A stretch of 64,000 bases of DNA. Origin: an uncultured archaeon (GTDB lineage: Archaea > Aenigmatarchaeota > Aenigmatarchaeia > CG10238-14 > SCSR01). A program made the position numbers and the translations under genes. Of the stretch, positions 37,524 through 58,146 are shown one piece after another (the first letter of the stretch is position 1; each line of letters opens with the position of its first letter). Under the pieces are notes generated by a model. It did not search any database, had not been told where the DNA came from, and saw only the letters and a list, made by a program, of their open reading frames with translations. The stretch lies in contig CAYJVM010000001.1 in the NCBI GenBank assembly GCA_964373665.1, positions 9,546 through 73,545 of the forward strand, read 5' to 3'.

Positions 37524-37608
37524 GCGCCGATAGTCTAGTCTGGTAGGACATCAAACTTTGTGTAAGCCTTCCAAGCTGAACGCATGGGTTCAAATCCCGT
37601 TCGGCGCA
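37524..37608 (+). tRNA. tRNA-Gly (anticodon TCC) with a ~12-nt non-canonical intron near positions 26-30
   Basis: Acceptor GCGCCGA/TCGGCGC. D-arm GTCT-AGTCTGGTA-GGAC. T-arm ATGGG-TTCAAAT-CCCGT. Anticodon arm TAAGC-CUUCCAA-GCTGA (the typical Gly-UCC loop). 12 extra nt (TCAAACTTTGTG) lie between the D-arm and anticodon stem. Confidence 0.6.
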
Positions 37609-37670
37609 CTAGAACTTTAAAGAAATAGAGAAAAATTAAAGAAAAACTCAAAAATTAGCGATGGATTGTC

Positions 37671-47579: not shown

Positions 47580-47747
47580 ATGTTACAAGATCGCCCTTTA
47601 ACATGTGATAAATGTGGTCAATCAAGCAATTATCCCAAAAATGAAGCATATAAAGACGGTGTGACATGCAAAAATTGCAATAAGGAGATAGATACGACTA
47701 AACTAAAAGTTCTCGACGTGGTAAAAGCATTTAGAGAAGAAGACTAG
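47580..47747 (+). CDS. Small Zn-ribbon protein (55 aa)
   Basis: MLQDRPLTCDKCGQ...VTCKNCNKEI; below the track threshold; abuts the transposase gene. Confidence 0.3.
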   Translation: MLQDRPLTCDKCGQSSNYPKNEAYKDGVTCKNCNKEIDTTKLKVLDVVKAFREED

Positions 47748-49315
47748 GTATGAACAATCTCATAAAGAGATTTCAAGAATAGCTTAAAGGTAACTACCCT
47801 TTTTGCAGCGTCCTTTATTCCAAGTTCTAACATTACAAGTAGGTTGATTAATGTCCATAAATTGTATAGTGCAACCGAAAACAGAAAATAGAATAATCTT
47901 ATTGAATAATTGTTAGATGTTGTCTTAACTAAACCTTCTCTTTTCTTAACACGGTATCCAGTTTCTATTCCCCATCTCTTACCATACATTCTAGGCAGGT
48001 TTTCAATCAAATCCACATCGTGACTGTTAATTGGAATGTTGGTTGCTATCTTCATCAGACCTTTAGTTCCTTCAACCAGAACAAGGTTCTTTATGATAGC
48101 GTTGCCTCTCTTATAGTTATGAATAACAAATGGTGGTGATACAGTTTCTATAACTTTCTTAACGCCTCTGTCATCAGGCAGTGGTACCACATAATTCAAT
48201 TTCATTGACTGCAACAGGTTGAATATTTTCTCGTTAGCGAATCCTCTATCCATGTAAATCTTGTTGATCTTGATTTTCTTCTGAGTATATTCTAACAACT
48301 CTTTAACTAAATCAGCTTCTCTATCGAAGATGAAAACAGGGAAAGCACATAACGTAAACCTAGTACCGTTTTCTACAATATCAAGAGTAATGTACTTGAA
48401 GTATCTGATAGTACCGTGATCATATTTGCTGTTGACGATGTTGGGATGGTTAGGATCTCCATAATAATGTTGGAAAGTATAGTCAACTGCAACATCAAAC
48501 TTTCTCTTATTAAATTTTCCAGACCTTTTAGCTATCCTAAACAACTCATCCGAAACTTTGGTAAATATGGCCTTGGTAGATTTAGGGTCGTGCTTCTTCA
48601 GATGATAAAGAATTGTGTTGGAAGCTGGTGAAATGGAGCCATTCTTCTTGTAGGACAATGCTCCACCATTCGTGAAACTACCTTCCAATGCCGAATGTAC
48701 TAGAACATCTAATATAGTGTTTTTAGTGTATTTTGCGTTATGCTTTATGTCAAGTTTTATCTTAGGATATATTATCTGTCTTAATCTTTTGGAGAGTTCG
48801 CTTAATTTCTGCTCCTTTTGATATTGTACATTGGTTTCTTTAACTGGCTCTATTTTTTCTTCTATTTTCGGAATTTCTGTGTCGAAACTCAGATCGAATT
48901 TCTCGGATATTTCCCTAATTTTTTTGACTATCAGTTCTATAATTTCCTTTTCTTCCTGAATGAGCTTGTGAACAAGAAAATAGGAAAAGCTCCTTTGGTC
49001 AGGTACCATTAATGTGTTGGTTTCGTCTTTGTCAAAACCTAGATTAAGTGCGTCGTTTTCGTTTGACTTTAGATAATCCGATAGATTTTTGGAGGATTTA
49101 ATTCCTTTCAATTGTTTGTAAATCAAGGCTCTTATCAACGATAATTTGGAGAATCTTATCATTTCTTCATCTGGTATTATGTGACCTATCTCCAGTTTAG
49201 ATAGAAATTCAGATAACTTGATAGAGCTAACATTCTTTAAACTAACAAAATTCTTATATACAGTCTTTTCAATTTTACTAATGGGGATTGTTGCTGTCAT
49301 AGGTAACATCTCCAC
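47744..49315 (-). CDS. DDE transposase, IS4-superfamily (IS1634/ISH3-like size)
   Basis: 523 aa; C-terminal KRWGIETGYRVKKRE (Y..RW.IE....K signature of IS4-type DDE transposases). Confidence 0.7.
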   Translation of the reverse strand: MEMLPMTATIPISKIEKTVYKNFVSLKNVSSIKLSEFLSKLEIGHIIPDEEMIRFSKLSLIRALIYKQLKGIKSSKNLSDYLKSNENDALNLGFDKDETNTLMVPDQRSFSYFLVHKLIQEEKEIIELIVKKIREISEKFDLSFDTEIPKIEEKIEPVKETNVQYQKEQKLSELSKRLRQIIYPKIKLDIKHNAKYTKNTILDVLVHSALEGSFTNGGALSYKKNGSISPASNTILYHLKKHDPKSTKAIFTKVSDELFRIAKRSGKFNKRKFDVAVDYTFQHYYGDPNHPNIVNSKYDHGTIRYFKYITLDIVENGTRFTLCAFPVFIFDREADLVKELLEYTQKKIKINKIYMDRGFANEKIFNLLQSMKLNYVVPLPDDRGVKKVIETVSPPFVIHNYKRGNAIIKNLVLVEGTKGLMKIATNIPINSHDVDLIENLPRMYGKRWGIETGYRVKKREGLVKTTSNNYSIRLFYFLFSVALYNLWTLINLLVMLELGIKDAAKRVVTFKLFLKSLYEIVHT

Positions 49316-49496
49316 CAGAGGAGTCAGTTCACAAGGCTAGCTCCTCTGGCTTACTTATCCAATGGGATAAGATTATTAGTCCTTATCCATAGTCTTATCC
49401 ATAGGTATAATATATATGTACTAGTATTTAAGCTTATCGGTATGGCTATCGGTAGAAAGTATTTAAATATAATAAACGAATTACTTTTAGATTAAT

Positions 49497-49700
49497 ATGG
49501 AAGACGAAATATCCAAGAAAATTGTCAGTACCATTAAATCTTCAGACGAACCAATCGAAACAAAAGAGATAGAACAAAAAATCAAAGGTGTGTCTAGAGA
49601 TAAGATATTGTACAGATTGTTTAATTTGAGAGGTGAAGGAGTAATTAAAGGAAAACAAGTAGGCTCAGGTAAAGGTACTTGGATATGGTGGAAAAAGTAA
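49497..49700 (+). CDS. Small winged-helix protein upstream of the R-M gene (candidate controller/regulator)
   Basis: IETKEIEQKIKGVSRDKILYRLFNLRGEGVIKGKQ. Confidence 0.45.
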   Translation: MEDEISKKIVSTIKSSDEPIETKEIEQKIKGVSRDKILYRLFNLRGEGVIKGKQVGSGKGTWIWWKK

Positions 49701-49718
49701 ACTGCATCAGGAGATAAT

Positions 49719-52700
49719 ATGGTAGAAAAACCAGACTTTGTAGATTCCGTCTTGAACTCTTTTAAGAATATATTAGGAGAGGTAGAGAAAGGCTCATCTG
49801 AACACGATATCAGATACAAGTTTGTCAAGTATTTTCTCGAGGATGTACTAGGTTACGAACCAAGACTGATCAAATGGGAAAAGAAGAGAGCTGACTTGAC
49901 CATCATAGACGATAACAATTTTTCTGTAATAATGATAGAAACGAAAAGACCCCAAGAGGACATAGAGAAAGCATCGATAGAAGAACAGGCTTTCAAGTAT
50001 GAGGAGGGAACTACAAAATACATAGGACTGACTAATTTTTCTCGGTTCAAATTATGGGAAACTAAGGATTCTAAAAGAGAACTGAAGGCGGACATAGACT
50101 TTTCGAGACTAATAGAAAGAAAAAGTGAACTATCGACTGAGGATAAAGGTAATATACTATTTCTGAATAATCTCACCAAAGATCAAATTTTTGATGCAAG
50201 AAAATACGAGAAATTCGACGAAACATATGCTAAAATCGATATAACGAAAGACGTTGGATTTAGAAAATTGTTGGAGAAGCTTAATTTCATTGCCAATAAT
50301 CTTTTGCTGGGATATACGCTGAAAGCATTTGGAGAATACAAAGAAGGTTATGGTAGATACCTGGAAGAATTGAAGCAAGTCGAGAAAGTGTCTAATAATT
50401 CGCATAAAGAAATTAATCATGGTGTGGCCAAGTTCAAGCAAAAGCTAGAGGAAAAATATGAAAAATACAGGACATTTTCTGGCTATTATTTATGGAAGGA
50501 GTATTCGGGAAAAGAGAACATTACAGATGATGAGATAAAGGAAGTTTTCTGCAAAGAAACAATTTACGTATTCCTTAACAAGTTGCTCTTCCTAAGAATA
50601 TGCGAAGATAAGGGATTGCTTGAGAAGAATATTTCAAACGGTGGAATCGAAGAGTTAAGAGCTGTCCTCAAAAAGAGATTTGAAAAAGATATCTTAAACA
50701 AAGAAATACTAAAGCTGGCTTTTGAGAGTGCGAAAGGTCTGTACTCCCATTTTTACGAGACGGGTATCTTGGATTGGTTTAGAACTGGAGATGGTGAACT
50801 AAACGAGTTGTTGAACAGAGTGCTGTGGATAATGAATTCGTTCAACTTTAGACATGTTGACAGGGATATACTAGGCAACCTTTATGAAAAATACCTTCCC
50901 AGTAACGAAAGAAAAAGATTGGGGGAATTTTACACACCAGTTGAGGTTATAGACTACATTTTAACGTCTGTTGGATATACTTACAGCTATGATATTGAAA
51001 CTAAAGATTTGTTAGATCCAGCGTGTGGTTCAGGCGGTTTCTTAGTTAGAGGTACAAGAAGATTAATTAGCAGGTATTTGATGAAATTTGGTAAATCTGA
51101 CAAGAAAGAATTGAGAGATCCTAAAAATTGGAAGGAGATTGTTAGTAGATTGTCACCTGACGAAGCAAAAATAATTCTTGAATCTATTAAAGAACATATT
51201 TATGGTCTTGATGTCAATCCTTTTGCCTGCCACATTGCTGAGATGAACCTTCTTTTTCAAGTAGTAGATTTGTATCAGAAAGCTAGAGAAAAATATAGAG
51301 ATTACAAGTTAGGAAGATTCAAAATATATAGAACAGATTCTTTGGAAAAACCTAGTCAAAAACAGATTTTTGATTACACCCATTCGACATTCTTGGAAGA
51401 GCAGGAAGAGATCGATAAGATTAAGAGCAAGAAGTTTGATTTTGTTACGGGTAACCCACCATATATCCGCGTACAAATGTTGGATGAGAGAGTGAAGAAG
51501 TATATTACCGAGAATTACAAAACGGCTTATAGCAACTTTGATTTATATGTTATTTTTATTGAGCGTGGTCTGAATTGGCTTAAGGATAATGGGAATTTTG
51601 GATACATTACGTCCAATCAATTCATAAATAGAGAATATGGTAAAAAATTAAGAAAATATATTTTGGAAAATTCCAAAATCATAAGCATAATAGATTTCGG
51701 TGATTCTGGAGTATTCAAGGATGCTACAAATTATCCAATGATACTGATTTTTAAAAGGGGCACACAAAAATCTAATAGGTTCAAATTTATAAAAGTAAAG
51801 CAATCGAAAGATAATTTAATTGGAGATATTTTTTCCAAGTTTAAGGAAAAAGAATATAATGGTCCTTATTTTGATATTTTTGAAATTGAACAGAATAAAC
51901 TTTCCGAAGAAACATGGCAACTATTTTCAGGTACAATAATTAAAATTCTAGAAAAGCTAGAAAAGAATATTAAACTGAAGGATCTGTGTAGAGAAAATGG
52001 TGTAGTAGTTGGTGTACAAACAGGATTAAATGATGTTTATGTTGTAAATAAAGACACTATTAACAAATACAAATTAGAAAGCAGTTTAATCAAAAAGTTG
52101 TTAGACAGTAGAGATGTAAGACGATGGAAAATAAATCATAGTGGACTGTATTTAATATACCCTTATTACGAAAGGGGTGGAAAAACAATCTTGATTGATG
52201 AAAAGACATTGAAGTCTGATTTTTCGAACGTTTATTCATATTTACTTGAAAATAAAAATAAACTTATAAAACGATGGGGTGTGAAAAACTGTTGGTATGA
52301 ATTGCCAACCGCAAGAACTCTAAATTTCTTTGAACAGAAAAAAATTTTAACTCCGACCATAAGTAATTTTAACAACTTTGCCTTAGATACAAATGGACTT
52401 TTCTTTGCGAAAGGAGCAGGAGGAAGCTATGGAATTATATTAAAAAATGATAGCAAAGATAACTATCTTTACATTTTGGGTCTGATAAATTCCAGATTGT
52501 TAGAATTCTACTTAAAGCAATTTCTTCCTGTAAAAGCCGGTGGATGGTATGAATATATAGCAGCATATCTGGAAAAACTCCCTATCAAACTTCCAGAAAC
52601 TGCAGAGGAAAAGAAAATTACCAATCAGATAATCAAGAAAGTAGACGAAATTTTAGAATTGCATAAATCTGGAATTGTGGATATAGACACTGCACTTGAA

Positions 52701-53096
52701 AATGTAGAAACAGAGAAACTATGCAATTTACCAAAAATAACATTCAATATAAAAGATGATGCTAAATTTGAGAAAGTTAAAACAGAAGGAAACAAAATTT
52801 ACATCAATTCTCAGGATTTCATAGAGGTCAAAGACAAGAAACTTAAGGACTTTGTTGAAATGTATCTCAACTTTAACAGTGAAAAGTTATCTAAAGATAT
52901 CAAAAGTATGCTTATCAACATTCCTATTCCAAAATCCGATGAAATTCTAAAAGATGTAATAGCTAAAGGCGGTATCGATTATTCACAGATTAAAGAAGAA
53001 ATTAGAAAACTAGAGCAGGAAATTAACGATTTGGTTTATCAAATTTATGGAATAACTAAAGAAGAACAACATGTTATAGATAATAGTATTAAATAA
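49719..53096 (+). CDS. Type IIG restriction-modification enzyme (fused PD-(D/E)xK endonuclease, gamma-class N6-adenine methyltransferase and target-recognition domain; Eco57I/MmeI-like)
   Basis: N-terminal D..E.K (ADLTIIDD..VIMIETKRP); MTase motif I LDPACGSGGFLV and motif IV FDFVTGNPPYIRV; 1125 aa. Confidence 0.8.
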   Translation: MVEKPDFVDSVLNSFKNILGEVEKGSSEHDIRYKFVKYFLEDVLGYEPRLIKWEKKRADLTIIDDNNFSVIMIETKRPQEDIEKASIEEQAFKYEEGTTKYIGLTNFSRFKLWETKDSKRELKADIDFSRLIERKSELSTEDKGNILFLNNLTKDQIFDARKYEKFDETYAKIDITKDVGFRKLLEKLNFIANNLLLGYTLKAFGEYKEGYGRYLEELKQVEKVSNNSHKEINHGVAKFKQKLEEKYEKYRTFSGYYLWKEYSGKENITDDEIKEVFCKETIYVFLNKLLFLRICEDKGLLEKNISNGGIEELRAVLKKRFEKDILNKEILKLAFESAKGLYSHFYETGILDWFRTGDGELNELLNRVLWIMNSFNFRHVDRDILGNLYEKYLPSNERKRLGEFYTPVEVIDYILTSVGYTYSYDIETKDLLDPACGSGGFLVRGTRRLISRYLMKFGKSDKKELRDPKNWKEIVSRLSPDEAKIILESIKEHIYGLDVNPFACHIAEMNLLFQVVDLYQKAREKYRDYKLGRFKIYRTDSLEKPSQKQIFDYTHSTFLEEQEEIDKIKSKKFDFVTGNPPYIRVQMLDERVKKYITENYKTAYSNFDLYVIFIERGLNWLKDNGNFGYITSNQFINREYGKKLRKYILENSKIISIIDFGDSGVFKDATNYPMILIFKRGTQKSNRFKFIKVKQSKDNLIGDIFSKFKEKEYNGPYFDIFEIEQNKLSEETWQLFSGTIIKILEKLEKNIKLKDLCRENGVVVGVQTGLNDVYVVNKDTINKYKLESSLIKKLLDSRDVRRWKINHSGLYLIYPYYERGGKTILIDEKTLKSDFSNVYSYLLENKNKLIKRWGVKNCWYELPTARTLNFFEQKKILTPTISNFNNFALDTNGLFFAKGAGGSYGIILKNDSKDNYLYILGLINSRLLEFYLKQFLPVKAGGWYEYIAAYLEKLPIKLPETAEEKKITNQIIKKVDEILELHKSGIVDIDTALENVETEKLCNLPKITFNIKDDAKFEKVKTEGNKIYINSQDFIEVKDKKLKDFVEMYLNFNSEKLSKDIKSMLINIPIPKSDEILKDVIAKGGIDYSQIKEEIRKLEQEINDLVYQIYGITKEEQHVIDNSIK

Positions 53097-53102
53097 TATA
53101 AC

Positions 53103-53594
53103 TTATTTTGGAATATACTTAATTACTTTTACCAAACCCTTCCATTGTTTCACGGGAATCTTAACAAACTTATTAGATGCAATATAAGATTCTATACTTT
53201 TAGAACTTAGAGACTTTGATACAGATGTGCCTTTTAAAATTAGTGTAAATGTACCTAAATCACCTAAACTTGTAAATCTACAAATTTTCTTATCATAGTA
53301 CTGTCCCGCATACATAGAACATACTTCGTTGCGTATTTCTGAGTCCAAATTAAGAGTTAATATTTCATGAATTACACCATTAGCTATTACATCTCCTTCA
53401 CCACTGACACAAACCTCATAGTTTTCCATAGTAAACTCAGGAGGACATACAATCAAATCATCAAGTTGTGCTAATGCATTTTCAACAGCCGGTAGTGTAG
53501 CATCTATAACTTGATCTGCAACCCACATTTGAAAGAGAAATACAATTAGAGCTGTTATACTAATGCCACCTATTATCGGTATACCCCCTTTCAT
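53103..53594 (-). CDS. Membrane-anchored/secreted protein with four Cys
   Basis: N-terminal TM GGIPIIGGISITALIVFLF; last gene of a minus-strand string. Confidence 0.4.
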   Translation of the reverse strand: MKGGIPIIGGISITALIVFLFQMWVADQVIDATLPAVENALAQLDDLIVCPPEFTMENYEVCVSGEGDVIANGVIHEILTLNLDSEIRNEVCSMYAGQYYDKKICRFTSLGDLGTFTLILKGTSVSKSLSSKSIESYIASNKFVKIPVKQWKGLVKVIKYIPK

Positions 53595-53905
53595 TAAATC
53601 ATCTTTAATAAACTAGTCTAATTCCAACTTCAGCCTCTTTTATAGCATTATTTTCAACGAGTTTGGATAATCCCCACATCAACAAAAAGAAACCACAAAT
53701 GCTTGCTAGAGTGTATGTTGAACTATCATTCCGATATTCTTGCTGATAATAGTTCACGAGTTCACCTCCTGTAGCTCTGCATATTTTCTATGCCTTTTAG
53801 AAAAAGGAAGATGCATCATATTGTACGCATAATTCCATTGCTTTTCCGTCATGGATTTGAAACCTTTATTACAAATATTACAAACTCTTTTTGATTTCAT
53901 AACAT

Positions 53906-54310
53906 TCAACCTCTAGGTGTCCAAATTTCATTTGCGGATATTCCAAGTTGACGAAGTCTTTCCTTAACTGACTCTCTGCTAGAACTAGTATTACACGTTT
54001 TTGGGACAACTATATGGAATTCACTTCCAGTAGTTCTTGATCTGTTGTAAAAGGCAGTCCATTGTCTTTCTGTATGTTGATCAAATATAGAACTACATGT
54101 TTCAGCTTCTAAAATAATAAGACTTCTATTAACACCATTTTTATAACAAGTTAAATCTGGTATATAACCATTAATGGAATCCGGCCTAGAGTAACCGTCC
54201 AAATCAGCTTTGATATCTGTACACCCAAGACTTTTAAAATGATTTGCCATCATTTCAATAAGTTGTATATGTTCTTTACTCTCTGCTGAGGTTCTAGTCA
54301 TAAAAATCAT
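53906..54310 (-). CDS. Hjc-like PD-(D/E)xK-fold protein, paralogue 2 (E-x-E-T variant)
   Basis: IQLIEMMANHFKSLGCTDIKADLDGY...PDLTCYKNGVNRSLIILEAET aligns to Hjc ERELv.lLek.GfaVvRsAGS...vDliA.ngk..l.IEvK; catalytic-position Lys replaced by Glu. Confidence 0.45.
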   Translation of the reverse strand: MIFMTRTSAESKEHIQLIEMMANHFKSLGCTDIKADLDGYSRPDSINGYIPDLTCYKNGVNRSLIILEAETCSSIFDQHTERQWTAFYNRSRTTGSEFHIVVPKTCNTSSSRESVKERLRQLGISANEIWTPRG

Positions 54311-54600
54311 CTCATACGTCTAACCCTAACCTCTGTATTTGGTCTATTTTTGGCATATTTCCTAAGGAGTCTCCTCTGATTAATATCTCTCCTGAAAGAA
54401 GTTGGGGTCTCAACTTCGACTATTCTAGTCTTCTTCCCTTTTTTTGCAATTATATCGGGTCTTACTGAATGACTGTGTACTCTAAGTGTTCTAGGTTTAT
54501 CGAATCCAGAAACATCTGCATGTACTCTCCAACCATAACTTTCTAACGCAGCAGCTCTTCTAATTACAGATTTATCGTGCTTCGAGATTTTACGGCTCAT
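54307..54600 (-). CDS. Hjc-like PD-(D/E)xK-fold protein, paralogue 1 (E-x-E-T variant)
   Basis: RRAAALESYGWRVHADVSGF...RPDIIAKKGKKTRIVEVET; same pattern as its neighbour; ATGA overlap. Confidence 0.45.
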   Translation of the reverse strand: MSRKISKHDKSVIRRAAALESYGWRVHADVSGFDKPRTLRVHSHSVRPDIIAKKGKKTRIVEVETPTSFRRDINQRRLLRKYAKNRPNTEVRVRRMR

Positions 54601-54723
54601 TTTCTTTCAATATTAATTATAAGCTAACACTTAAATACTTTGTTTTTGCATGTAGTTTGCGTATACTAGGTATAATATGGGGAAAGAACATACTGATATA
54701 AGGCTATAAAAGAAAATAATAAT

Positions 54724-55101
54724 ATGGTTGTACGATATGTATCTAAATTTATTACTGATGTGCAACCAGAAAAACTAAAATCAGAAAGTAAGATCTTTGA
54801 CATCTCAGATAAAATATTTCATCCCCTCAGAATGTTAATACTTTTTGATTTGGCTAAACACAAAGAAGCTTCTTTTCAGGAACTTAAAACTGCAACCCGT
54901 ACGACAGACGGTAATCTTGCAAGCCATCTAAGAGCTTTGGAGGAGAACGGTTTTGTTCGATATAAAAAGGAAATTAATGGAAAGCGTGTTATAACTTTTT
55001 ACCAACTAACAGAGTCTGGAAAAGACGAATTAAATAAACTAATCGAAGTGTTAACCCAACATCTCGAAAAACTTAAAGGTGATTCAGATGACAGATATTA
55101 A
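54724..55101 (+). CDS. Winged-helix (ArsR/TrmB-like) transcriptional regulator
   Basis: LRMLILFDLAKHKEASFQELKTATRTTDGNLASHLRALEENGFVRYKK..GKRVITFYQLTESG. Confidence 0.55.
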   Translation: MVVRYVSKFITDVQPEKLKSESKIFDISDKIFHPLRMLILFDLAKHKEASFQELKTATRTTDGNLASHLRALEENGFVRYKKEINGKRVITFYQLTESGKDELNKLIEVLTQHLEKLKGDSDDRY

Positions 55102-55552
55102 AAAAATATTAGCATGTTTAAACTATTTAGGAGTTTCATCTAATTTGAATTATTTTGCAAAGAGAATGCAAATACAAAAACTTATTTATTTAATACAAAT
55201 TTTTGGTGTAGATTTAGATTATAAATTTAATTGGTATCTTCACGGACCTTATAGTTCACCTTTGACTAAAATATTATTTGAGAATAAAAATATACCACGC
55301 GATTCGAGTAGTCTTACTCAAGGTGAAACTGAAAAATTAAGTAAGTTGAAAGAATTTCTAGGCGAAGATTTGCAATCGTCACATAATTTAGAAATCATAG
55401 TTTCCCTGCATTTTCTATTAATGGTAGGCAAATACCATCATAAAAGCGATAAAGAAATGATCGAACTTTTAAAAGAAAAGAAACCTTTCATTCCTCCAGA
55501 AAAAATAGAGAAATACTATGAAAAGATCAAGAAATTAATAGAAGAAAAATAA
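55079..55552 (+). CDS. Panacea-domain (DUF4065, SocA/PanA-like antitoxin domain) protein
   Basis: IQKLIYLIQIFGVDLDYKFNWYLHGPYSSPL matches the KLqKLLY...W..GPv signature; 23-nt overlap with the upstream wHTH gene. Confidence 0.5.
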   Translation: MIQMTDIKKILACLNYLGVSSNLNYFAKRMQIQKLIYLIQIFGVDLDYKFNWYLHGPYSSPLTKILFENKNIPRDSSSLTQGETEKLSKLKEFLGEDLQSSHNLEIIVSLHFLLMVGKYHHKSDKEMIELLKEKKPFIPPEKIEKYYEKIKKLIEEK

Positions 55553-55586
55553 ACAGTTGACTTTTACTAAAACATACCATTTTAAT

Positions 55587-55718
55587 CTGAAATAAAGTTG
55601 TCGTCTTTTATCCTTATATTTACGTTACTCCGTTTTTCTCTAGCTTTTAATCTTACACCAAACATTTCTGATAAATAGTTCAATTCCTGATACGATGTAG
55701 CCTTCTTTTTCATTAATG
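55587..55718 (-). pseudogene. Duplicated 3'-terminal fragment (~40 codons) of the double-HTH gene at 56598..57242
   Basis: The fragment translates as MKKKATSYQELNYLSEMFGVRLKAREKRSNVNIRIKDDNFISD. The intact C-terminus reads KKKTTSYQELNYLSQVFGIKLKAVEKRNTVNTTIKEISQVSKV. DNA identity is ~80% over ~130 bp. Confidence 0.6.
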
Positions 55719-55749
55719 ATATTTATTTGGATTTAATCAACTTCTATAA

Positions 55750-56403
55750 ATGATTGTAGGCATCGATAGTGCTAATAATTTGACATGCACAGGTATAATA
55801 TCTGGCAACGAATTGGAGATAACCGATTTTTACGAAGAACTTAGAACAATCTTTGCAAAAAGGAAAGTATATCCGCCATTCAAATGGGGCAATCTCACGG
55901 AAAATACTAGAAACTCATGTAAAAATGAGATAGAAGAATTGTTCAATAACCACGATTCCAAACTGAAATTCAACGTATTGTTCCATAAAAAGCCTCTTTC
56001 CATATCCAAAAAGGAAGTTTTGTTTGACATATTGCCAACATCCATTTCGGAAAATCTGGCAGAATGGATTAAAAACATTTCAGGATTTGTTATATTCGAA
56101 ATAGACAATGATTATAATATCAAAAACAAAAATACGCATGATTTCATTGAGAGCTTATTCAAGAGAATTATACCTACTCTTACGGACAAAATAATAACGA
56201 TCAGACGAGAACATGGTGTGCATAAGGTCACTATTAAGAAAAAAGTTGGTCCTAAAGACAGAAGCACAATTCATTTGGCAGGACGGGTTTCCAATGTCAA
56301 AGATTCGAGATCCATTCAGATAATAGACGTAATTCTAGGATATGTATTGAACAGAAAATGCAAATTTAGAAAAGATAAGCTGTATATTAGAACAATTTGT
56401 TGA
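55750..56403 (+). CDS. Hypothetical protein flanked by direct repeats (candidate toxin/effector; possible RNase-H-like fold)
   Basis: MIVGIDSANN.., ..IFEIDNDY.., ..IQIIDVILG resemble D/E/D of RuvC-like folds. This reading is speculative. Confidence 0.35.
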   Translation: MIVGIDSANNLTCTGIISGNELEITDFYEELRTIFAKRKVYPPFKWGNLTENTRNSCKNEIEELFNNHDSKLKFNVLFHKKPLSISKKEVLFDILPTSISENLAEWIKNISGFVIFEIDNDYNIKNKNTHDFIESLFKRIIPTLTDKIITIRREHGVHKVTIKKKVGPKDRSTIHLAGRVSNVKDSRSIQIIDVILGYVLNRKCKFRKDKLYIRTIC

Positions 56404-56597
56404 AAAAATTAAGATTGCTCCTCGCCTGTCGGCAAAGGAGTGAGTTTGTAGGCATTCCCAAGTCAACGCCCATAGGGGTCATAACTTGAGAACTGAAACT
56501 CTAATTATTAATACGGTACAGTAATATATAAAAGCACATCATTCGAAGCCTTTTAAGCTTTTCTGGTAAGCTACTTAAACATTCTAATTTGAGACAG

Positions 56598-57242
56598 TTA
56601 AACTTTTGAAACTTGGCTAATCTCTTTTATTGTGGTGTTAACAGTATTTCTCTTCTCTACAGCCTTTAATTTTATACCAAATACCTGTGATAAGTAATTC
56701 AGTTCTTGATAAGACGTAGTCTTCTTTTTCATCAACTTTAAAACTTCCTTCAACGCTTCTCCATTTTTATCTTGTAAAAAACAAACAGTCACACAAAACT
56801 TGCCCTTAAACAACCTAACCCTCCTGATGTTCAATTGGCTAGTCAAACTTCTTACAGCTCTAAGGTACGAATGTTTTTTCTTAGGCACTATAAAATACCC
56901 TTTATCAGTCAGTTCAGACAACACTTCCATGATAGGAGTACTACCAAACCTTCTGACAGAACCTCTGAGGTCATATGTCAGTAGATAGACAGTCTGTCTG
57001 TGAATCCCGAACATTTTAGCCAGTTCCAGAATATCAGTACCTTCATTAAAGAGTTTCCTTATCTCTTCCTTCTCTTCTGTGGTTAGTCTTCTAATCTGTC
57101 GTGGCAAGTCATCTGTATACCGTAAAACTTGCCATTTTTGGACACCTAGCTTTCTAGATATTTCCAATAGCTTGAAACCTCTTTTGTAGAGTTCTCTGAT
57201 CTGGTTAATGGTCTCGGCAGATAACTGTGATTTTCTAGGCAT
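56598..57242 (-). CDS. Double helix-turn-helix protein (transposase N-terminal-domain-like; no catalytic domain)
   Basis: Two resolvase/Tc1-type HTH repeats: INQIRELYKRGFKLLEISRKLGVQKWQVLRY and KEEIRKLFNEGTDILELAKMFGIHRQTVYLLTY. Confidence 0.45.
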   Translation of the reverse strand: MPRKSQLSAETINQIRELYKRGFKLLEISRKLGVQKWQVLRYTDDLPRQIRRLTTEEKEEIRKLFNEGTDILELAKMFGIHRQTVYLLTYDLRGSVRRFGSTPIMEVLSELTDKGYFIVPKKKHSYLRAVRSLTSQLNIRRVRLFKGKFCVTVCFLQDKNGEALKEVLKLMKKKTTSYQELNYLSQVFGIKLKAVEKRNTVNTTIKEISQVSKV

Positions 57243-57433
57243 GAGAAGAGCTTCTGTAATGCCTTTAAAAGCGATTTCTATACTCCATTATGATTTGGTA
57301 AAATTCGAGCAGAAAAATACTTTATTCTTGAACTCGGAATTTTCAAATTCTGCGTCTATTCGCCCTAAATCTCAAGAATTTGAGCTAGATTGGTAAATAA
57401 TTACTTATAGATCTACTGTTTCATGTTGATTTC

Positions 57434-57988
57434 ATGGCATACTCTTACAGAATGTTAAGGAAACTGATATTGGACAAGATAGCTCCAAATCACGACGCTG
57501 TCATCGAAGGCGGTATAGGAAACAATTTCCAAAGATTCCACTATTTCCGGCAATATGGATACAGAGGCTTGTATTTTGGAGTGGATGTGAAAAGGCCAAA
57601 TGAAGAGATACCAGAAGGCTTGACCTACCTGCAGGCAGACTGTTTCGACGAGGATTCTATGATAAATTACATGCTTGGCTTTAGGGTGAAGAATCCTTTC
57701 TTTGTCACAAATGCGGCTCTGGTCGACTGCCTACTTAACGGTTCCAATAGTTACAGAATGGTTGATGTTGTGGATGCCATGACTTTAATTTGCGGAGCAC
57801 AGATGCATCTGAAACCATTGAAAAACTTTTCGCCGAGAGAATTAAGGAAGTATGCGAGAACCGGTAGTCACACTGAAGATTATAGAAAGTTGGCGGAATT
57901 CCTGGAAGAAAGCAAAAGGGCCGGTTGGGAATATTATATCGAAGGCGGTATAGTCCTGCTCAATAAAAACAACTCTTTTCCAGACTGA
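57434..57988 (+). CDS. Hypothetical protein, possible small Rossmann/SAM-MTase-like fold
   Basis: VIEGGIGNN (G-rich loop) then FGVDV; weak. Confidence 0.3.
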   Translation: MAYSYRMLRKLILDKIAPNHDAVIEGGIGNNFQRFHYFRQYGYRGLYFGVDVKRPNEEIPEGLTYLQADCFDEDSMINYMLGFRVKNPFFVTNAALVDCLLNGSNSYRMVDVVDAMTLICGAQMHLKPLKNFSPRELRKYARTGSHTEDYRKLAEFLEESKRAGWEYYIEGGIVLLNKNNSFPD

Positions 57989-58146
57989 ACGTATAAAAGG
58001 TTTTGCTGCGTTATAGCAATGTAGAATCCATTTAAGCTTTTCCATAGAAACGGCAATACCCCAAAATTTTCTATAGGAAATATAATTGCCTATGAGAATT
58101 TCGTGTAAATTTATAAACTCACAACTACCATAGTTTTTAGATTGTC

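Follow-up and report, generated by a model that had tools for sequence, protein, structure and literature searches.

Lysine-less PD-(D/E)xK proteins related to the resolvase Hjc are encoded by a tandem gene pair in an archaeal genomic island

A window of 64,000 nucleotides (nt) from an uncultured archaeon of the Aenigmatarchaeota (contig CAYJVM010000001.1, positions 9,546 to 73,545 of the forward strand) was analysed with a focus on two adjacent genes, here termed orfA and orfB, whose products resemble the archaeal Holliday junction resolvase Hjc. As proposed in a first-pass annotation that had been made from the letters alone, the two genes were found to be small open reading frames (ORFs) with products of 97 and 134 residues that are joined by an ATGA stop/start overlap. 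Both are on the minus strand (Table 1), which the annotation had not stated. This overlap suggests that translation of orfA and orfB is coupled. Since the homologues of orfB begin 2 to 3 residues later, at approximately residue 3-4 of orfB in the subfamily alignment, the true orfB start could be the second ATG (54299-54301), which would leave a 5-nt spacer and no overlap; the coordinates indicate tight packing of the two genes under either start. Upstream of orfA, TATA-like stretches (TATTTAAG and CTTATAATT) are located 15 to 40 nt before the ATG, in a region that is a putative promoter only. The sigma-70 model that was used to scan this region is not applicable to archaea.

Table 1. Coordinates of the orfA-orfB pair, its sequence motifs and the surrounding features in the window.
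Feature	Position	Strand	Remarks
orfA	54307..54600	-	97 aa; short-form AHJR-like PD-(D/E)xK protein
orfB	53906..54310	-	134 aa; long-form paralogue, extra C-terminal alpha-beta unit
orfA/orfB ATGA stop/start overlap	54307..54310	-	junction ATG AGA TGA, orfB ATG embedded
orfA signature residues	H8, A28-D29, P48-D49, E62-V-E64-T65, R71, Q75
orfB signature residues	H14, A35-D36, P51-D52, E68-A-E70-T71, H79-T80, Q83, F87
orfA P48-D49 codons	54454..54459	-	beta2 start
orfB P51-D52 codons	54155..54160	-	beta2 start
orfA V-E-V-E-T codons (residues 61-65)	54406..54420	-	beta3; second E aligns with the Hjc catalytic Lys
orfB L-E-A-E-T codons (residues 67-71)	54098..54112	-	beta3; second E aligns with the Hjc catalytic Lys
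A+T-rich intergenic region	54601..54723	-	5' of both orfA and the divergently transcribed winged-helix regulator gene; putative promoter
Low-GC island	47744..58000		GC 0.334 vs 0.431 and 0.418 in the flanks
DDE transposase (insertion sequence)	47744-49315
Type IIG restriction-methyltransferase	49719-53096	+	PADLOC 1e-75
Three downstream ORFs	53103..53909	-	overlapping or near-abutting ends
Winged-helix regulator, divergent from orfA	54724-55101	+	HTH_34, 5.5e-19
157-aa DarG-C-terminal-like ORF	55079-55552	+	overlaps winged-helix regulator gene
HTH_7/Cbp1-like ORF, 214 aa	56598..57242	-

In PD-(D/E)xK enzymes the aspartate of strand beta2 and the acidic residue of beta3 bind Mg2+, and the lysine positions the attacking water. 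The (Pro)-Asp at the N-terminus of beta2 and the beta3 acid (E62 in orfA, E68 in orfB) are present in both proteins, and the lysine of the (D/E)-x-K motif is replaced by glutamate in each. The motif that had been claimed for the lysine site, [LV]E[AV]ET, was read directly from the sequence as VEVET in orfA and LEAET in orfB.

Searches of an index of 5.8 billion proteins returned 22 homologues of orfB, with E-values from 2e-44 to approximately 1e-10 and identities of 38 to 58%, and nine homologues of orfA (E-values of 2e-30 to 1e-5), several of which carried a precomputed match to the Pfam family PF18743. Look-ups by exact sequence gave no record of either protein, and the genome was absent from the set of GTDB representatives that was scanned. 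Alignments revealed that P-D and E-x-E-T are invariant within the orfA family and within the orfB family. Because each protein has strong homologues and the two families match one another at an E-value of 1e-18 (hhalign probability of 99.1% over 95 columns), the similarity of orfA and orfB is not due to chance; the profile evidence identifies them, at an identity of approximately 20%, as true but ancient paralogues. When the merged alignment was used for an exhaustive HMMER search, at least 1361 representatives (50%-identity clusters) passed E≤1e-3 and 590 passed E≤1e-10. The family is spread across Bacteria and Archaea. Hosts include Zixibacteria, Actinomycetota, Deltaproteobacteria, Acidobacteriota and Bathyarchaeota, a range that implies horizontal spread. 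Plasmid sequences gave no tblastn match with orfA or orfB; the same type of search gave one weak phage match for orfB (Myxococcus phage Mx1, 27% identity), and the loci obtained from IMG/VR were two of the short form and none of the long form.

The family is subdivided into a short form of about 97-100 amino acids (aa) and a long form of about 125-137 aa, the latter being extended at its C-terminus by a helix and a strand. PF18743 was matched by 26 of 150 family representatives (best E-value of 6e-12) and PF01870, the Hjc family, by seven (best E-value of 2e-4); representative P0116 scored 19.6 bits against the PF01870 cut-off of 21.1 bits. The ten short-form representatives all matched PF18743 (seven exceeded the gathering cut-off, with 27-35.6 bits) and all carried EVET, so the Pfam AHJR-like family already holds lysine-less members. 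orfA itself scored 15.6 bits against PF18743 (E-value of 0.012, 74 residues aligned), short of the gathering cut-off of 26.1 bits, and orfB did not match this model; neither protein matched PF01870 at E≤1. By these scores orfA is a divergent, sub-threshold outlier of PF18743, and orfB belongs to a sister group that lacks a curated model, since Pfam, NCBIfam, PHROGs and PADLOC held no model that matched orfB or the long form. Residues C55, C72 and C106 of orfB are conserved in the long-form subclade, C55 being invariant; C72 and C106 are lost jointly in P0008 (A/V) and P0019 (V/Y), which suggests that these two cysteines have a paired role, either as a disulfide or as a shared ligand.

AlphaFold2 models of both proteins were of high quality, with a predicted local distance difference test score (pLDDT) of 93.2 and a predicted template modelling score (pTM) of 0.87 for orfB, and values of 89.5 and 0.81, respectively, for orfA. 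Both models have the alpha-beta-beta-beta-alpha-beta order around a mixed four-stranded sheet core, and on these predicted structures the PD-(D/E)xK fold of orfA and orfB is certain. By structure alone, Hjc was one of many equally good matches, with the subunits of R.BspD6I among the best. With the profile of 150 representatives, Hjc chains were the only PDB matches, namely Sulfolobus tokodaii ST1444 (2eo0, E-value of 0.0071) and S. solfataricus Hjc (4tkd, 1hh1 and 4tkk, E-values of approximately 0.06-0.09), and the alignment placed PD on PD and ilEvET on LIEVKS/LIEMKS. The same profile matched Acidianus Hjc in the same register, including the alpha2 glutamine, with a probability of 95.6% and an E-value of 1.3e-8 (hhalign); this was a comparison of a profile with a single sequence, the search with an Hjc fragment having given one protein only. 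Narrower subfamily profiles matched Hjc with probabilities of 67% and 34% in an identical register. Single-sequence PDB searches with orfA and orfB returned noise only, and the orfB-family profile alone gave no PDB match. In sequence, the nearest relatives of the family are the archaeal Holliday junction resolvases (AHJR-like PF18743 and Hjc). The earlier reading of the pair as Hjc-like paralogues was supported, both by the match of the family profile to Hjc and by the match between the two families. No Hjc-like gene besides orfA and orfB was detected in the window with either Hjc fragments or the family profile.

The catalytic tetrad of Hjc consists of a glutamate in alpha1, an aspartate in beta2 and Glu-x-Lys in beta3. 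The aspartate and the first beta3 glutamate are retained in orfA and orfB, and the lysine is glutamate. Judged by its spacing from a conserved glycine, the alpha1 glutamate corresponds to Val12 in orfA and Ile18 in orfB, with a histidine at i-4, one helical turn earlier; this mapping is less secure, as the N-terminal alpha1 is outside the hhalign alignment.

Residue conservation was counted over 184 aligned family sequences, which share the signature H..AD..PD..ExET..(H/R)xxxQxxxF. The alpha1 histidine was present in 175 sequences, the alanine at the end of beta1 in 173, and the proline and aspartate of PD in 182 each. Within ExET, the first and second glutamates were each present in 179 sequences and the threonine in 178. 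The Q-x3-F element was almost as constant (172 for each residue), and the position four before the glutamine was histidine in 122 sequences and arginine in 24. Both orfA and orfB keep all signature positions; the (H/R) position is R71 in the former and H79 in the latter. The first-pass annotation had suggested a check of whether the EAET motif is conserved in other genomes; ExET is family-wide, and these counts indicate that the lysine-less motif is a trait of the whole large family and not peculiar to orfA and orfB.

Two relatives have a lysine at the position of the second glutamate with the rest of the signature intact, namely P0148 (VEAKT) and the first domain of P0107 (VEIKR). The lysine is exactly at this position in both, which independently supports the equivalence of the glutamate and lysine positions. 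A shift of the alignment that brings a lysine into the catalytic site would have told against the initial proposal, but no such shift was seen; the register was the same in all profile alignments. Replacement of the PD-(D/E)xK lysine by an acidic residue has been documented (PMC1189080), as in the E-x-E of BamHI (also PMC3424549, Fig. 4B), as has its migration to the second core helix, alpha2 (PMC3424549, Fig. 4, 'Active site variation'). Candidates for a migrated conserved lysine, the beta1 'K' of IKAD and the lysine of A-x-K after PD, were rejected, being either unconserved family-wide or not at the catalytic end of the sheet.

P0107 (225 aa) is a natural fusion of two short-form domains, the first with E-x-K and the second with VEIET, and was the sole two-domain protein among the 150 best representatives. 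A sister clade from Flavobacteriia (loci L014-L020; for example Winogradskyella L018, 8010-8390) has the G-Y-[TS]-x-I-K-A-D and P-D-I-V motifs, but carries (D/E)-x3-K-S on beta3 (FELGIKS, FDLSLKS). In three Winogradskyella species the gene order is conserved, with the sister-clade gene lying between proB/proA and a sigma-70 gene (rpoD). A housekeeping role drawn from this proB-proA-X-rpoD synteny was rejected: the proteins concerned belong to the divergent clade, which is unfit for inferring the function of ExET proteins because (D/E)-x3-K-S replaces ExET.

The genomic contexts of the family were compared at 29 other loci (L001-L029) from metagenomes, genomes and viral contigs, the closest relatives of orfA and orfB included. 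Members with ExET were found on a plasmid- or virus-like element with an archaeo-eukaryotic primase (AEP) gene (L002), with a Shedu-type SduA_C gene (L003), with a serine resolvase gene nearby (L001), near insertion sequence (IS) elements (L004 and L005), beside a gene for a Multiubiquitin-domain protein (L013), and among ordinary transporters on a Bathyarchaeota chromosome (L011). A short-form member is also encoded by a prophage-like contig (L025, 4932-5276; L028, IMG/VR UViG_3300037714_000454), in which genes for the portal and major capsid proteins are followed by the family gene and then by genes for an N6_N4 methyltransferase and a ScaI-family restriction endonuclease.

The orfA-orfB pair itself is located within a 10-kb low-GC island of foreign DNA, and the earlier statement that this island also holds an IS element and a type IIG enzyme was borne out by the transposase and type IIG genes listed in Table 1. 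In the type IIG enzyme, whose gene is 1-2 kb from the E-x-E-T motifs of orfA and orfB, the N-terminal region reads ADLTIIDDNNFSVIMIETKRP and contains the canonical D...E-x-K nuclease motif. Three ORFs downstream of orfB on the same strand, as described initially, encode 51 aa with a CxxC motif, 50 aa with one hydrophobic stretch and 163 aa with an N-terminal hydrophobic anchor; they are closely packed and are probably co-transcribed. Of the features ascribed to them, a single hydrophobic stretch was found in each of the 50-aa and 163-aa products, but the C2H2-like product had only very weak zinc-finger matches (E-value of approximately 0.1). None of the three was found beside family homologues at the 29 other loci. 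On the other side of the pair, residues 12-68 of the 157-aa ORF match positions ~172-228 of DarG antitoxin models (1.8e-9 with PADLOC; 8.6e-7 with NCBIfam, where the match falls far short of the cut-off), and this ORF and the winged-helix regulator may constitute an antitoxin- or adaptor-like module.

These neighbours raise the question of a toxin/antidote or defence module, in which one paralogue would act as a toxic nuclease and be neutralised or regulated by the other, a catalytically compromised copy. The defence-type island, with the type IIG enzyme and the DarG-like ORF beside the pair, is compatible with such a module, as is the two-gene overlap, which is typical of toxin-antitoxin loci; at L022 the orfB homologue follows a 52-aa ORF that appears AbrB-like by eye and has no match in Pfam. 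However, the full signature is present in both proteins, so neither looks inactive, the homologues are single genes that have no recurrent partner, and there was no PADLOC match. A toxin/antidote function is consequently regarded as quite improbable.

Several other features of the window were recorded. A direct repeat of 113 nt with 73% identity occurs at 55604-55716 and 56623-56735, approximately 1 kb apart, and its copies flank a 217-aa ORF (55750..56403). A 43-aa ORF (55582..55713, minus strand) repeats the C-terminal stretch, from approximately residue 170 (MKKKTTSYQELNYLS), of the 214-aa HTH_7/Cbp1-like ORF. From its sequence, the repeat looks like the remnant of a duplication or cassette insertion. 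The sole tRNA gene in the window encodes tRNA-His (37524-37609, plus strand), which at 86 nt (ARAGORN) is unusually long and scored 47.5 bits with Rfam. Archaeal genes in the window include those for Ribosomal_S4e, L24P/L26, NurA and SepF.

Overall, the preferred explanation, to which a probability of roughly 0.55 is assigned, is that orfA and orfB are ancient paralogues of an Hjc-like family of active metal nucleases that are found on mobile and defence DNA, and that the two proteins probably form a heterodimer. The restriction-endonuclease fold of the two proteins, their homology to one another and to Hjc, and a polar constellation that is nearly invariant across the family were established here; the activity, the substrate and the heterodimer are inferred. 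The constellation begins with the alpha1 histidine and the aspartate that closes beta1; beta2 opens with Pro-Asp, beta3 carries Glu-x-Glu-Thr, and alpha2 opens with (His/Arg)-x3-Gln-x3-Phe. Both proteins would be active, divalent-metal-dependent nucleases in which the all-acidic D/E/E cluster binds the metal ions and the attacking water, by analogy with BamHI, whose E-x-E (E111/E113) is catalytically competent. The alpha1 histidine would serve as an extra metal ligand, as in the His-containing cap-snatching endonucleases, and the histidine or arginine of alpha2 might supply the positive charge that normally comes from the lysine. A structure-specific nuclease for branched or junction DNA, serving or travelling with mobile DNA, is favoured over a sequence-specific restriction enzyme because the proteins are of minimal size and have no recognition domain, and because their genes are single, lack a methylase or immunity partner and occur in mobile and defence contexts. 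In this genome orfA and orfB would be co-transcribed and translationally coupled, and their products would probably assemble as a heterodimer with two non-identical active sites, two separate homodimers also being possible. The heterodimer is plausible because the genes are coupled, because P0107 is a natural fusion and because the proteins resemble both R.BspD6I subunits in structure.

Alternatively, nuclease activity may have been lost and the proteins may act as DNA- or metal-binding regulators or adaptors on a resolvase scaffold. Both the canonical lysine and the alpha1 glutamate of Hjc are gone, a divergent winged-helix regulator gene adjoins the pair, and inactive PD-(D/E)xK homologues are known (PMC3424549). 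Decayed sites drift, however, whereas here five to seven polar residues at catalytic positions are near-invariant at approximately 30% identity; E-x-E is catalytically competent in BamHI (PMC1189080), and the occasional reversion to E-x-K suggests that the site is still used. Loss of activity therefore appears unlikely.

Several observations weigh against the preferred explanation of an active, heterodimeric nuclease pair. Two of the four Hjc catalytic residues, the alpha1 glutamate and the lysine, are changed, so that activity is not guaranteed, and the beta1 aspartate is less conserved than the rest of the constellation (161 of 184 sequences). No neighbour recurred across unrelated loci among the 29 compared, and no pathway was indicated; orfA and orfB had no meaningful match in PADLOC and none in PHROGs. 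The literature searched on PF18743 and AHJR-like proteins contained no functional study of the family, and no biochemical data were found for any member. The idea of a heterodimer rests on the gene overlap and one fusion protein. Furthermore, exactly one family gene was present at each of the 29 other loci, which indicates that each subfamily works without the other. The suggested check of whether the tandem pair is conserved in other genomes thus gave a negative answer among these loci: the tandem arrangement is unique among the loci compared and is the only unusual feature of the pair.

The single-copy state is what would be expected of two independent homodimeric nucleases of different subfamilies that are merely adjacent in the same island and have no functional pairing. 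It extends to the closest homologues, including orfA-like genes at 65% and 60% identity and an orfB-like gene at 58%; in the closest homologue of orfA, the stop codon is not followed by an orfB-like reading frame. In addition, the low identity between orfA and orfB shows that the pair is not a recent duplication, and Hjc-type enzymes are homodimers. Conversely, the overlap or 5-nt spacing in a tight operon favours co-expression, and the P0107 fusion indicates that two family domains can work as one unit. Given the single-copy state elsewhere, independent homodimers are a strong rival, though less likely than the preferred explanation. A further version, which is unlikely, is that the ExET family comprises widespread lysine-less, His-assisted metal nucleases, or possibly no DNA nuclease at all, and that in this island two subfamilies have been joined into an obligate asymmetric heterodimer with two different active sites, in the manner of R.BspD6I; the heterodimer and the three downstream proteins would jointly serve as an effector of a mobile element or of defence.

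In a minimal restriction-fold family of at least 1361 clusters, the textbook catalytic lysine is systematically glutamate and the helix glutamate is replaced by histidine; curated models cover the short form only, and its members seem not to have been studied. Should the proteins prove active, the E-x-E chemistry of BamHI would extend to a resolvase-like clade, and mobile elements and defence islands would gain a common small nuclease in their inventory. The coupled pair and the one natural fusion offer a simple system for testing heterodimers of minimal nucleases. For annotation, the motif alone is no ground for naming such proteins either 'Hjc' or 'inactive'. The lysine-less family is partly catalogued already, and the tandem pair is the unusual part.

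orfA and orfB were compared with several known systems. Hjc and Hje (PF01870; 1hh1, 2eo0, 1gef and 1ob8) have the catalytic lysine where orfA and orfB have glutamate, and a catalytic alpha1 glutamate where these have valine or isoleucine with a histidine four residues earlier; after beta1, orfA and orfB have D-x-x-G-x-x-x-P in place of the S-G-S phosphate-binding loop. A further catalogued group is PF18743 ('REase_AHJR-like'), in which the short-form relatives of orfA score above the cut-off and share the H-D..AD..PD..EVET signature, whereas the long form, with its C-terminal alpha-beta extension, escapes the model. BamHI (E77, D94, E111 and E113) is, like orfA and orfB, a PD-(D/E)xK protein with glutamate for the lysine of E-x-K, and is fully active; unlike them, it is larger and sequence-specific, has a cognate methylase and carries a helix glutamate instead of a histidine, and no sequence relationship was detected. 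The cap-snatching endonucleases of bunya-, arena- and orthomyxoviruses (H..D/E..PD..(D/E)xK) resemble orfA and orfB in their histidine, a resemblance that is structural and analogical only, but they keep the lysine on beta3 or the next helix, act on RNA as their substrate and form part of large polymerases as domains. Finally, both subunits of the R.BspD6I heterodimer, the large nicking subunit (2ewf) and the small subunit (2p14), are structurally similar to orfA and orfB; no sequence similarity was found, and R.BspD6I differs in that its large subunit has a DNA-recognition domain and the system includes a methylase.
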